Below, in pieces: positions 55,227 through 56,702 of a DNA stretch of 64,000 nucleotides; position 1 is the first letter of the stretch; every line of letters begins with the position of its first letter. The stretch comes from Escherichia phage HMD-P10. The position numbers and the translations under genes are program-made. The notes beneath the pieces are model-generated. The model saw only the letters and a list, made by a program, of their open reading frames with translations. It ran no database searches and was not told the origin of the DNA. Location of the stretch: the sequence record PV469800.1; one strand, written 5' to 3'.

Positions 55227-55300
55227 GCACCTATAGCCCAACTGGTAGAGGCAGCAGACTTAGAATCTGCTCAGTGTGAGTTCGAATCTCTCTAGGTGTA
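55227..55300 (+). tRNA. tRNA with UAG anticodon (Leu-type) and short variable region
   Basis: acceptor GCACCTA/TAGGTGT, anticodon stem GCAGA/TCTGC, loop CTTAGAA, 5-nt variable region, A73. Confidence 0.5.
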
Positions 55301-55310
55301 CCAAATTAAT

Positions 55311-55383
55311 GCAGGTGTAGCAAAATGGTTATGCGGCTGACTCTTAATCAGTAAGACGATGGGTTCAATTCCCTCCACCTGTA
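55311..55383 (+). tRNA. tRNA-Lys(CUU)
   Basis: paralog of the 53995 gene; anticodon loop CTCTTAA; acceptor GCAGGTG/CACCTGT. Confidence 0.5.
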
Positions 55384-55392
55384 CCAAACATT

Positions 55393-55465
55393 GGGGTCAT
55401 AGTTTATATGGTTAAAATTCGAGTTTTGCAAACTTGGGAACTGAGTTCAATTCTCAGTGACTCCA
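55393..55465 (+). tRNA. tRNA-Ala(UGC)
   Basis: acceptor GGGGTCA/TGACTCC with G3-U70, anticodon loop TTTGCAA, T-arm CTGAG-TTCAATT-CTCAG. Confidence 0.65.
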
Positions 55466-55474
55466 CCAATTAGT

Positions 55475-55546
55475 GCATCCATAGTTTAAACGGGAAAATT
55501 ACAGTCTTCCAAACTGAGGTTGAGGGTTCGATTCCCTCTGGATGCT
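55475..55546 (+). tRNA. tRNA-Gly(UCC)
   Basis: acceptor GCATCCA/TGGATGC, anticodon loop CTTCCAA, T-arm GAGGG-TTCGATT-CCCTC. Confidence 0.65.
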
Positions 55547-55555
55547 CCAAACAAT

Positions 55556-55629
55556 GCTGCTTTCGTATAATTGGCTATTACACATCCCTTGTAAGGATGG
55601 AAATGCAGGTTCGAGTCCTGTGAGCAGCA
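55556..55629 (+). tRNA. tRNA-Thr(UGU)
   Basis: acceptor GCTGCTT/GAGCAGC, anticodon stem CATCC/GGATG, loop CTTGTAA. Confidence 0.65.
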
Positions 55630-55635
55630 CCAATT

Positions 55636-55723
55636 CAGAGGTCAAGTGAAAGACCGCTTTGAGTCAACTGAAGACCGTAACAAATTCCACGGAGTTGAGT
55701 TAGCGGCACAACTTCAGACCTCT
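55636..55723 (+). ncRNA. structured spacer RNA candidate
   Basis: outer inverted repeat CAGAGGTC/GACCTCTG; internal GAAGACCG motifs similar to Y-like elements. Confidence 0.25.
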
Positions 55724-55728
55724 TTCAT

Positions 55729-55800
55729 ACTCGCTTAGTTTATATGGTAAAACATCACCCTTACAAGATGAAGAAAAAGGTTCAAGTCCTTTAGTGAGTA
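55729..55800 (+). tRNA. tRNA-Val(UAC)
   Basis: acceptor ACTCGCT/AGTGAGT, D-stem GTTT/AAAC, anticodon loop CTTACAA, T-arm AAAGG-TTCAAGT-CCTTT. Confidence 0.6.
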
Positions 55801-55804
55801 CCAT

Positions 55805-55879
55805 GTTCCAGTATCCCAATTGGCAGAGGATGCAAGCTCAAACCTTGTATTAGTGACGGTTCGAATCCGTCTTGGAACA
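55805..55879 (+). tRNA. tRNA with CAA anticodon (Leu-type) and short variable region
   Basis: acceptor GTTCCAG/TTGGAAC, anticodon stem GCAAG/CTTGT, loop CTCAAAC, 6-nt variable region, A73. Confidence 0.5.
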
Positions 55880-55887
55880 CCAATTTT

Positions 55888-55960
55888 GCAGGATTAGTTC
55901 AAATGGATAGAGCAACAGTCTACGAAGCTGTTAATAGGGGTTCGAATCCCTTATCCTGCG
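55888..55960 (+). tRNA. tRNA-Arg(ACG)
   Basis: acceptor GCAGGAT/ATCCTGC, D-arm GTTC..GAGC, anticodon loop CTACGAA, T-loop TTCGAAT. Confidence 0.65.
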
Positions 55961-55982
55961 CCAATTTAAAGAGGCTATTTAG

Positions 55983-56540
55983 ATGAGATATTTGAAGTAT
56001 GCTTCATGGATTTTCCTAGCTTTGTTAGAGCCATTTGCAGCAATCTTAGCAGTTATCTTAGCACCTTTTGTAGTTCCATTTTACAGTGAGAAGAAAGGAC
56101 ACTTACCTTTCGGATTTAGATGGATGGAAACTTACGACAACCCGATTGATGGTGATGAAGGCCATGTCAAACGATGGGCTAAGATTAGAAAGATTGGTAA
56201 GCTTGGTATCTATATGCAGAGAGTTGGTTGGCTCTGGAGAAACAAAGCTTATAACTTCTCTTACCATGTGTTAGGAAGAGATGTAAAAGATGTTACTAAG
56301 TGGAAAGGTAATATCAATGTAAGTTCTAACCCTGAAGATAATCAGACAGGTTATCTCCTAATGTGGAACAGTAATGCTTGGGGATTATTCGCTTTTATCC
56401 CATCAATTAAAGTCTTTGGTAAGCAATTCTACTGGAGAATTTATGTTGGATGGAAACTTAAAAGTGTTGTTCCAAAAGAAAGAGCATTCTCAAGGGAAAG
56501 AGTTATGTTGGCATTCTTTATTCATCCACTGAGAAAGTAA
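55983..56540 (+). CDS. hypothetical membrane protein embedded in tRNA cluster
   Basis: 185 aa; N-terminal hydrophobic helix; RBS AGAGG; flanked by tRNAs. Confidence 0.45.
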   Translation: MRYLKYASWIFLALLEPFAAILAVILAPFVVPFYSEKKGHLPFGFRWMETYDNPIDGDEGHVKRWAKIRKIGKLGIYMQRVGWLWRNKAYNFSYHVLGRDVKDVTKWKGNINVSSNPEDNQTGYLLMWNSNAWGLFAFIPSIKVFGKQFYWRIYVGWKLKSVVPKERAFSRERVMLAFFIHPLRK

Positions 56541-56548
56541 AGATTTAA

Positions 56549-56621
56549 AGGGGATTAGTTTACAAGGTTAAAACCTCGGTCTTTGAAATCGAAGAAGTTG
56601 GTTCAATTCCAACATCCCCCG
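56549..56621 (+). tRNA. tRNA-Gln(UUG)
   Basis: acceptor AGGGGAT/ATCCCCC (position 1 unpaired), D-stem GTTT/AAAC, anticodon loop CTTTGAA, T-arm GTTGG-TTCAATT-CCAAC. Confidence 0.6.
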
Positions 56622-56626
56622 CCAAT

Positions 56627-56702
56627 GCTCCATTACTCCAATTGGCAGAGAGGCCAGACTTAAAATCTGTGTTATGTATCGGTTCGAATCCGATATGGAG
56701 TA
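56627..56702 (+). tRNA. tRNA with UAA anticodon (Leu-type) and 7-nt variable region
   Basis: acceptor GCTCCAT/ATGGAGT, anticodon loop CTTAAAA, T-arm ATCGG-TTCGAAT-CCGAT, A73. Confidence 0.5.

Follow-up and report, generated by a model that had tools for sequence, protein, structure and literature searches.

Three tRNA-Leu genes without the long variable arm in a Felix O1-like Escherichia phage, and similar genes in other phages

Introduction

In textbooks and recent reviews, bacterial leucine tRNA (tRNA-Leu) is taken to have a long variable arm without exception. The exception described in Streptomyces coelicolor had been presented as unique, and the leucyl-tRNA synthetase (LeuRS) of Escherichia coli as limited to long-armed substrates. 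In S. coelicolor, a type I tRNA-Leu(CAA) occurs alongside long-armed isoacceptors and a single LeuRS, and leucylation of this tRNA by the organism's own enzyme was demonstrated experimentally (PMC6614811). A further case was recorded in the Mycobacterium mucogenicum clade, where a tRNA-Leu(TAG) with a short variable loop lies in a tRNA cluster and was contrasted with the normal chromosomal isoacceptor; the report (2019) gives it one sentence, without identity elements, distribution or links to the phages of other hosts (PMC6582537). Here, we describe three tRNA-Leu genes, with the anticodons UAG, CAA and UAA, in a 64,000-nucleotide (nt) stretch of Escherichia phage HMD-P10 (accession PV469800.1), referred to below as the window. 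All three lack the long arm. With a probability that we put at about 0.8, they are working class I tRNA-Leu that would be transcribed with the surrounding tRNA cluster and charged by the LeuRS of the host, be it E. coli, Salmonella or Shigella.

The leucine identity set of E. coli consists of A73, A14 (with U8), the A15-U48 Levitt pair, G18G19 and A20a, together with the contacts G18-U55, G19-C56 and U54-A58, and neither the anticodon nor the long arm is needed (PMC9976931, PMC6614811). E. coli tRNA-Leu variants from which the arm was deleted are still charged and edited (Larkin 2002, as cited in PMC9976931). The synthetases differ in this respect, since the long arm is the main determinant for SerRS and is contacted by bacterial TyrRS, whereas bacterial LeuRS dispenses with it (PMC9976931).

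Results

Architecture of the three genes

The genes were located with ARAGORN and segmented base by base beside the E. coli leu genes (Table 1). The original prediction, made on this stretch without database searches, had given the UAG, CAA and UAA genes variable regions of 5, 6 and 7 nt. The manual segmentation gives the same lengths, and automated folding leaves the anticodons where they had been placed; in two of the Leu genes ARAGORN pairs position 26 with 44 and therefore prints loops that are one base shorter. Class II tRNAs have a variable region of more than 10 nt with a stem-loop, and none of the three genes has one. All three combine a Leu anticodon with a variable loop of about 5 nt, as in type I tRNA-Leu. 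Every gene scores above the gathering score of 29 of the Rfam tRNA model RF00005, with E-values from 9e-11 to 4e-7.

The premise that bacterial tRNA-Leu is long-armed holds for the six E. coli K-12 genes that were fetched, all of which are 85–87 nt long with variable regions of 13–15 nt. The tRNA-Tyr gene and the two tRNA-Ser genes of the window keep their long arms (15, 20 and 21 nt), as had been stated, and the ends first assigned to the three Leu genes (55300, 55879 and 56702) are their A73 discriminators. The D loop of the UAG gene is of the Leu type, with A14, A15, G18G19 and A20a, and has C13 in place of the purine (R13) of long-armed tRNA-Leu.

Leucine identity elements

U8, A14, A15 and a U as the terminal base of the variable region are present in all three genes, so that on sequence grounds the tertiary pairs U8-A14 and A15-U48 would be available. 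In each gene, position 13 and G18 are separated by four bases and G19 and position 34 by 15, and N20 is followed by an A. Among the other 23 tRNAs of the window, this spacing of G18G19 is found only in tRNA-Thr(UGU), which lacks A20a. The T loop UUCGAAU, common to the three, supplies U54, U55, C56 and A58. The phage D loop (AAYUGGYAGA) is equal in length and nearly equal in sequence to that of all six E. coli tRNA-Leu (AAUUGGUAGA or AAUCGGUAGA).

A combined set (U8, A14, A15-U48, the placement of G18G19, the extra D-arm nucleotide and A73) was scored over all tRNAs collected, with D-arm spacing measured from the ARAGORN anticodon position. It is complete in 230 of 259 long and 134 of 167 short tRNA-Leu, and in 31 of 1384 non-Leu tRNAs; within the window only the three Leu genes carry it in full. 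A73 was found in 160 of 162 short viral Leu tRNAs. A plain regular expression for the Leu-type D arm was also tried and replaced, as its 24–89 non-Leu matches were off-by-one readings in tRNAs whose anticodon starts with U.

Isotype scores point in the same direction. The Leu genes of Shigella phage Sf14 differ from those of the window by 1 nt (UAG), 0 nt (CAA) and 1 nt (UAA), and their published tRNAscan-SE scores rank Leu first in each case (67.4, 49.1 and 60.2, respectively), with next-best values of 36.1 for CAA and 54.2 (Lys) for UAA; the variable arm is nowhere mentioned in that study (PMC12482277). Inspection of the three window sequences revealed no G3.U70, no G73, no long arm and no anticodon determinant of an isotype other than Leu. 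Two readings had been offered at the outset, namely unusual Leu isoacceptors or tRNAs whose identity is not the one that the anticodon suggests. The identity elements and the Sf14 scores bear out the former, and the latter found no support. A nearest-neighbor test against 1650 labelled tRNAs, in which the anticodon was masked and the variable region removed, classed 127 of 167 short-Leu tRNAs as Leu by their five nearest neighbors; its control accuracy was 80%, and we give it no weight.

A remodelled core

The tRNA core was compared at positions outside the search pattern used to collect the genes. Position 9 is G in 230 of 232 long tRNA-Leu and A in about 70% of the short ones, and the pair 12-23 is G-C in 229 of the 232 long and C-G in about 75% of the short. 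Position 13 is a purine in the long form and C in about 83% of the short, and position 59, mostly G in the former, is mostly A in the latter. The combination of A9, C12, C13 and G23 occurs in 85 of 132 short genes, in no long gene, and in all three genes of the window.

In the crystal structure of free type II tRNA-Leu the core is built from the triples U8-A14-A20a, R13-G21-A22 and G9-G12-C23, the corresponding triples of tRNA-Phe being U8-A14-A21, C13-G22-m7G46 and A9-U12-A23 (PMC12360207). Since the window genes have A9, C12-G23 and C13, the type II triples G9-G12-C23 and R13-G21-A22 are unable to form as such. The D arm of short tRNA-Leu (GCCC AAYUGGUA G A GGC) can be read as a class-I-like arm (GCUC AGUUGGUA GAGC) changed in two respects, A15 and one extra nucleotide; the extra nucleotide would be A20a, a known leucine identity element. 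In the minimum-energy fold of the UAG tRNA (ViennaRNA), C13 pairs with G21 and A22 is bulged.

About a quarter of the short genes retain a core of the class II type, which suggests that there was more than one route to arm loss. When the signature positions are masked, short-short and short-long comparisons have the same mean identity (0.59), and nearest neighbors favor short-short pairs moderately, by 84 to 28. In view of the equal means and this only moderate preference, no claim is made for monophyly of the short family.

Distribution in phages and bacteria

A BLAST search with the 77-nt UAG gene returned ungapped matches of 75–85% identity to annotated tRNA-Leu genes in phages of several hosts: Mycobacterium (76 records), Streptomyces (46), Pseudomonas, Enterococcus, Gordonia, Cronobacter, Klebsiella and Bacillus. 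Eight phage genomes were fetched and run through ARAGORN. Short tRNA-Leu genes accompanied by long tRNA-Ser and tRNA-Tyr were found in Mycobacterium phage Koguma (three, of 74–76 nt), Erwinia phage phiEa104 (three), Streptomyces phage Jay2Jay, Cronobacter phage CR3, Bacillus phage P59 and Pseudomonas phage PE09 (two each), and in Klebsiella phage FBKp34, which has one short UAG and one long UAA gene. Phage T5, chosen irrespective of similarity, has a long tRNA-Leu. The short form is found in phages of Actinobacteria, Firmicutes and Proteobacteria.

Viral contigs were searched with a pattern that combines the D loop of tRNA-Leu with an NAR anticodon and a variable region of 4–8 nt, and at least 120 loci match it. 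In the 120 loci listed, ARAGORN predicts 161 short and 33 long tRNA-Leu, with 77 of 78 tRNA-Ser and 33 of 34 tRNA-Tyr long; the restriction of arm loss to Leu, proposed originally for the window, extends to these loci. A length-agnostic rescan of viral contigs and bacterial genomes, whose gap admits variable regions of 4–21 nt, removed the selection bias of that pattern. It covers the first 120 stretches of each collection and one D-loop motif, and thus provides samples rather than a census. Stretches of the short type number 26 among the first 120 listed for viruses and 3 among the first 120 for bacteria (Fisher p = 4.5e-6). At the level of genes, 42 of 179 viral (about 23%) and 5 of 124 bacterial (about 4%) tRNA-Leu in the listed loci are short (Fisher p = 1.5e-6), and among the matches listed the viral enrichment is roughly 6- to 10-fold. 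The lengths of the variable region over all collected Leu tRNAs are strictly bimodal (4–7 nt and 9–21 nt). The architecture is odd only by bacterial standards and is common among phage tRNA-Leu.

The bacterial cases come from the actinobacteria Gordonia and Herbiconiux and from a Planctomycetota metagenome-assembled genome (MAG) with three genes in a row, in which CAG, UAA and GAG copies are consecutive (Table 1). These genes carry a phage-like consensus (GCCC-AAUUGGCAGA-GGC, loop NCAGU). The possibility that such genes are prophage-borne was rejected on the basis of the two loci whose flanks were examined, those of Herbiconiux and the Planctomycetota MAG, where the neighbors are ordinary cellular genes (oxidoreductase, two-component system, subtilase, glutamate synthase and sigma factor). 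The bacterial cases carry the S. coelicolor precedent into further lineages.

Other features of these genomes were recorded as well. Where a phage has a single long tRNA-Leu beside short ones (viral loci L016-L095), it is the UAA isoacceptor that is long in most cases (15 of 22). A few tRNA-Tyr genes of 72–77 nt without the long arm are annotated or predicted, for example in Jay2Jay (L009, 19456–19527) and in some of the viral loci L016-L229, and arm loss may occasionally reach Tyr too. In FBKp34, a 114-nt feature annotated as tRNA-Asp (L010, 11791–11904) adjoins a normal 77-nt tRNA-Asp and could be an intron-containing or aberrant gene.

Conservation and covariation

The CAA and UAA genes are 95–100% identical across about 250 phage records, and short-armed Leu genes are present in three genera of the Ounavirinae. 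Changes in the subfamily's most divergent members sit in loops, yield a G-U pair or are compensatory, as with C53-G65 to U-A in the CAA tRNA of VpaE1_ev78. Covariation was assessed over 20 cloverleaf pairs in 112 unique short tRNA-Leu of equal length. Among these relatives, gathered by ARAGORN, which itself requires a cloverleaf, 97.9% of the cells are paired, against 58.9% in column shuffles and 37–47% with slid partners; cells changed on both sides number 862, against 222. Each stem position shows three to six pair types, except for the invariant G53-C61.

The UAG locus is more variable. At the locus that corresponds to 55227–55303 of the window, Felix O1 (Salmonella phage FO1a, L350 2570–2647) has a different tRNA-Leu(UAG) allele, which is also short-armed and whose D arm is irregular. 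The allele of the window is present in only ~90 of roughly 250 Felix-like records and is nearer (80–83%) to genes of Klebsiella, Bacillus and mycobacterial phages, a resemblance that suggests allelic replacement by horizontal exchange. In Salmonella phage Si3 (L354, KY626162.1 5121–5207), a single hybrid tRNA-Leu joins the equivalent of window positions 55805–55828 to that of 56651–56705: the 5' part of the CAA gene runs up to the common D-loop block CCAATTGGCAGAG and is followed by the remainder of the UAA gene. The hybrid looks like the product of a ~0.8 kb deletion through recombination between the two Leu genes. The deletion would have taken tRNA-Arg(ACG), an open reading frame (ORF) and tRNA-Gln(UUG), and the acceptor stem of the hybrid retains six of seven pairs.

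Codon supply and anticodon loops

Leu codon usage was counted over 59 ORFs of the window, at 38.7% G+C. UUA accounts for 26% of the Leu codons, CUU for 28%, CUA for 11% and CUG for 15%; the approximate values for E. coli are 13%, 10%, 4% and 50%, respectively. UUA, CUU and CUA are thus used more in the phage than in the host, and CUG less. The three anticodons cover UUR and CUN by means other than the host's dominant CAG tRNA, which fits a role in codon supply, and the Sf14 study likewise concludes codon supply for UUA and CUA (PMC12482277).

The anticodon loops differ from those of the host at positions 32, 37 and 38 (UAG), 32 and 38 (CAA) and 32 (UAA). The loop of the UAG tRNA has A37 and A38 where the host leuW has G37 and U38. 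This A37 sits at the m1G37 site, at which 67 of 68 bacterial NAG tRNAs have G37. Among the viral NAG (CUN-reading) tRNA-Leu of loci L016-L229, A37 is found in 53% of the short and 28% of the long, and the loop in the window, CUUAGAA, is the commonest viral UAG loop. In the CAA tRNA, C38 breaks the A36-A37-A38 motif.

Genome setting

The window belongs to a Felix O1-like myovirus (Ounavirinae). The region 55100–57000 matches 255 phage records at 80–99% identity, nearly all from Felix O1-like myoviruses with Escherichia, Salmonella, Shigella or Citrobacter as host. The Rfam tRNA model supports 24 of the 26 tRNAs of the cluster, including the three Leu genes, and Sf14 (Mooglevirus) has an identical set and order of 26 tRNAs. 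No LeuRS gene came to notice in the window, an observation made in passing and with no search aimed at it.

The ORF immediately 5' of the tRNA cluster has homologues in Sf14 (gp25) and FBKp34 (gp193), which are annotated DUF2828 and likewise lie just 5' of tRNA clusters; in Jay2Jay a 'Ro' RNA-binding protein is encoded within the tRNA region. The product of this ORF may be a Ro/TROVE-like partner of the cluster. Of the two ORFs amid the tRNA genes, the one with a PHROG 2143 match is missing at the corresponding site in Sf14. HNH endonuclease genes are inserted into the tRNA region in relatives. The CCA of tRNA-Ser(UGA) is incompletely encoded, with a 3' end of ...ACCGCC followed by T, unlike the other Leu, Tyr and Ser genes of the cluster, for which the ARAGORN output shows CCA ends. 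The tRNA-Ser(GCU) has U73 and not the bacterial G73; U73 is also seen in one tRNA-Ser (UGA) of T5.

Table 1. Coordinates of the tRNA-Leu genes, their parts and associated features. Positions are those of the window unless another source is named.
Feature	Position	Strand	Details and basis
tRNA-Leu(UAG), class I	55227..55303	+	77 nt with encoded CCA; ARAGORN; Rfam RF00005 57.3 bits
tRNA-Leu(UAG) acceptor stem	55227-55233 / 55293-55299	+	G1.U72; A73 at 55300
tRNA-Leu(UAG) D arm	55236..55252	+	GCCC-AACUGGUAGA-GGC; segmentation beside E. coli leu genes
tRNA-Leu(UAG) anticodon	55261..55263	+	UAG; loop CUUAGAA (55259-55265); ARAGORN and E. coli comparison
tRNA-Leu(UAG) variable loop	55271..55275	+	UCAGU, 5 nt, last base U48 (A15 partner); base-by-base segmentation
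tRNA-Leu(CAA)	55805..55882	+	78 nt with CCA; A73 at 55879; ARAGORN; Rfam 44.0 bits
tRNA-Leu(CAA) D arm	55814-55830	+	UCCC-AAUUGGCAGA-GGA; segmentation
tRNA-Leu(CAA) anticodon	55839-55841	+	Loop CUCAAAC; ARAGORN, segmentation
tRNA-Leu(CAA) variable loop	55849..55854	+	AUUAGU, 6 nt, last base U48; base-by-base segmentation
tRNA-Leu(UAA)	56627..56705	+	79 nt with CCA; A73 at 56702; ARAGORN; Rfam 47.5 bits
tRNA-Leu(UAA) D arm	56636-56652	+	CUCC-AAUUGGCAGA-GAG; segmentation
tRNA-Leu(UAA) anticodon	56661-56663	+	Loop CUUAAAA; ARAGORN, segmentation
tRNA-Leu(UAA) variable loop	56671..56677	+	GUUAUGU, 7 nt, last base U48; base-by-base segmentation
tRNA-Tyr(GUA), comparator	53370..53457	+	Variable arm 15 nt; ARAGORN
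tRNA-Ser(UGA), comparator	54881..54970	+	Variable arm 20 nt; ARAGORN
tRNA-Ser(GCU), comparator	57728..57820	+	Variable arm 21 nt; ARAGORN
tRNA cluster	52877..57900	+	26 co-oriented genes including the three Leu, two small ORFs between; ARAGORN
ORF immediately 5' of the cluster	51296-52711	+	PHROG 850 'RNA-binding protein' match, E = 3e-183
ORF amid tRNA genes	55983-56540	+	PHROG 2143
ORF amid tRNA genes	56992-57726	+	PHROG 2114
Bacterial short tRNA-Leu, Herbiconiux sp. chromosome (L323)	2732-2806		
Bacterial short tRNA-Leu, Gordonia sp. (L269)	491-566		
Bacterial short tRNA-Leu, Planctomycetota MAG (L342)	3550-3794		

Discussion

From the gene anatomy, the identity elements that are present, the conserved and covarying positions, the distribution and the Leu codon usage of the phage, we infer that the tRNAs are expressed, are charged by LeuRS and serve on the ribosome. 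The three Leu tRNAs would be transcribed along with the rest of the phage tRNA cluster. Bacterial LeuRS relies on neither the anticodon nor the long arm, which would make charging possible; the host enzyme would ignore both and recognize A73 together with the shape of the elbow and core, given by U8-A14, A15-U48, the position of G18G19, A20a, G18-U55, G19-C56 and U54-A58. A class-I-like D arm with one extra nucleotide would thereby offer, on a short scaffold, a minimal set of leucine identity elements. In decoding, the UAA tRNA would serve UUA and UUG, the CAA tRNA UUG, and the UAG tRNA CUA and CUG, and probably also CUU. The specificity of arm loss for Leu would follow from the other two synthetases, as the arm is indispensable to SerRS and contacted by TyrRS.

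Several observations weigh against this interpretation. E. coli LeuRS did not charge the type I tRNA-Leu(CAA) of S. coelicolor in vitro and is described as charging type II tRNA-Leu only (PMC6614811); the C48 of the S. coelicolor tRNA, where the E. coli and phage tRNAs have U48, may explain this failure. The isotype margin of the Sf14 UAG gene is narrow (Leu 67.4, Ile2 65.7, Lys 63.4; PMC12482277). In the nearest-neighbor test, the closest whole-body neighbors of the three window tRNAs are Lys, Tyr and Glu, with Leu second within one to three matches. The T stem of the UAG tRNA contains a U50.U64 mismatch, and a C27.U43 mismatch lies atop the anticodon stem of the UAA tRNA. ViennaRNA folds a cloverleaf for the UAG tRNA and mostly for the CAA tRNA, and does not for the UAA tRNA; the z-scores of the three are weak (-0.2 to -1.8), the method being uninformative for AT-rich unmodified tRNAs. 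Finally, the differences at positions 37 and 38 (A37 in UAG, C38 in CAA) may alter modification by host enzymes and the decoding properties.

The alternative that survives best concerns why the arm is missing and not what the genes are. It holds that loss of the arm is an adaptation by which phage Leu-tRNA escapes host effectors that recognize class II tRNAs by the long arm, so that Leu decoding persists once the host tRNA-Leu is inactivated. We regard this as possible, though doubtful. The viral enrichment of short tRNA-Leu, in stretches as in genes among the matches listed, is what it would lead one to expect, and the maintenance of the remodelled core across phages of three host phyla points to selection rather than decay, the ~10 nt saved per gene being a negligible gain. 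Effectors of a suitable kind have been described: MenT3 makes use of the long variable loop, a tRNA-Leu is the reported target of MenT1, and AbiEii, an abortive-infection toxin, appears to favor class II tRNAs. That tRNAs encoded by a phage can save its infection from tRNA nucleases is known, and the UAG and CAA anticodon loops differ from those of the host. However, no defence against tRNA-Leu or class II tRNAs was found in the literature consulted on E. coli, Salmonella and Shigella, where the known enterobacterial cases strike Lys, Tyr, Thr or fMet tRNAs at the anticodon arm. The tRNA-Ser and tRNA-Tyr would still be exposed, an M. tuberculosis tRNA-Leu transcript that was tested was left unmodified by AbiEii, and some bacterial chromosomes hold short tRNA-Leu amid ordinary cellular genes.

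In a broader and still more speculative form, the short-armed tRNA-Leu would be a widespread viral counter-measure, fixed repeatedly and exchanged among phages, that is charged by the host and goes unseen by arm-reading effectors. With equal reserve, the effectors evaded might be nucleotidyltransferases of the MenT/AbiEii type, or Schlafen-like or other nucleases. Because LeuRS is the only synthetase for class II tRNAs that ignores the arm, phages could fix a re-engineered class I form of tRNA-Leu, with A9, C12-G23, C13, A20a, A15-U48 and A73. If true, this idea predicts unrecognized tRNA-Leu-directed defences in enterobacteria, actinobacteria and firmicutes.

It is improbable that the genes have no role in translation and that they instead act on host tRNA-binding factors as decoys or sponges, work as primers or regulators, or mimic tRNA in uncharged form. 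The failure of E. coli LeuRS on another type I tRNA-Leu and the RNA-binding (DUF2828/Ro-related) gene directly 5' of the cluster, here and in other phages, could be taken that way. However, intact 7-nt anticodon loops with U33 and Leu anticodons are found in more than 160 relatives; A73, the encoded CCA and acceptor-stem covariation are kept, as for aminoacylated tRNAs; and the three anticodons supplement one another and match the codon bias of the phage.

A misleading anticodon, with charging by an amino acid other than leucine and partial recoding or mistranslation of Leu codons during infection, is very unlikely. A class I shape is indeed atypical of bacterial tRNA-Leu, the nearest whole-body neighbors are of other isotypes by small margins, and the Ile2 and Lys scores approach that of Leu for the UAG gene. 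Nevertheless, the synthetases for Lys, Ile, Glu, Tyr, Phe, Val, Met and other amino acids need anticodon bases that are missing here, AlaRS would lack its G3.U70 and SerRS the long arm or G73, the Sf14 scores rank Leu above every other isotype for each of the three genes, the full LeuRS identity set is present, and the Leu codon usage of the phage fits ordinary Leu decoding. Least credible is a decaying long-armed tRNA-Leu with deletions, en route to loss, or a gene-finder artefact: the stem mismatches, the variability of the UAG locus among Felix-like phages and the hybrid gene of Si3 can be cited for it, but the CAA and UAA genes are nearly invariant across some 250 records, short-armed Leu genes are present in three Ounavirinae genera, changes are compensatory or pair-preserving with strong family-wide covariation, both UAG alleles are intact and short-armed, and the conserved remodelled core argues against decay.

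In GenBank, hundreds of records annotate such genes as tRNA-Leu as a matter of routine. In the open-access literature, no earlier account was found of their breadth across phages, of the core signature or of their occurrence with hosts of the E. coli type, and open-access reviews of non-canonical tRNAs and of phage tRNAs do not mention short-armed phage tRNA-Leu. Classical coliphages and Salmonella phages of the Felix O1 group have three such genes in conserved form. If the phage genes are used as working class I tRNA-Leu, a LeuRS of the E. coli type must charge a natural class I tRNA-Leu in vivo, and the genes would provide a class I scaffold on which nature has set a minimal leucine identity, of use in studies of synthetase recognition and in tRNA engineering. 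The viral enrichment poses a testable question, namely what it is in phages that works against the arm: kinetic demands may be relaxed, the tRNA may be independent of host modification enzymes, or it may escape arm-reading defence effectors. Short tRNA-Leu in phage genomes should be allowed for in annotation pipelines and in isotype models whose training rests on cellular tRNAs.

Comparison with known systems

The class II tRNA-Leu of E. coli share much with the phage genes. The anticodons of leuW (UAG), leuX (CAA) and leuZ (UAA), A73, U8-A14, A15-U48 and the 10-nt D loop AAYUGGYAGA are alike, as are the positions of G18G19 and A20a, the three regular D-stem pairs with 13 and 22 unpaired, G1.U72 or G1-C72, and the T loop UUCRANU. 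The phage genes differ in their variable region (5–7 nt, compared with 13–15 nt with a stem-loop) and in the core, with A9 for G9, C12-G23 for G12-C23, C13 for R13 and A59 for G59.

The type I tRNA-Leu(CAA) of S. coelicolor has a 5-nt loop (ACAGC) that is nearly the phage consensus ACAGU. In contrast to the phage genes, it is chromosomal and actinobacterial and has C48; A73 is not used as an identity element, and a special leucine-specific domain of LeuRS is required (PMC6614811). The hosts of the phage genes have LeuRS of the E. coli type instead. Animal mitochondrial tRNA-Leu(UUR) is similarly class I, with its identity resting on A73 and A14 without a long arm (PMC9976931), but it is organellar and floppy, is served by a dedicated mitochondrial LeuRS and has no sequence relationship to the phage genes. 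Engineered armless E. coli tRNA-Leu is charged and edited if A73 and the contacts that link the D loop to the T loop are intact (Asahara 1993/1998; Larkin 2002; via PMC9976931); the phage genes, by comparison, are natural, conserved genes whose core is co-adapted.

Long-armed phage tRNA-Leu, such as those of T5 (UAG, 85 nt) and FBKp34 (UAA, 92 nt), are borne in clusters like the genes of the window, but are class II. The short form is therefore frequent but not universal in phages, and both forms can share a genome. The tRNA cluster of the M. mucogenicum clade, with its short-looped tRNA-Leu(TAG), carries an HNH endonuclease, as phage tRNA clusters do (PMC6582537).

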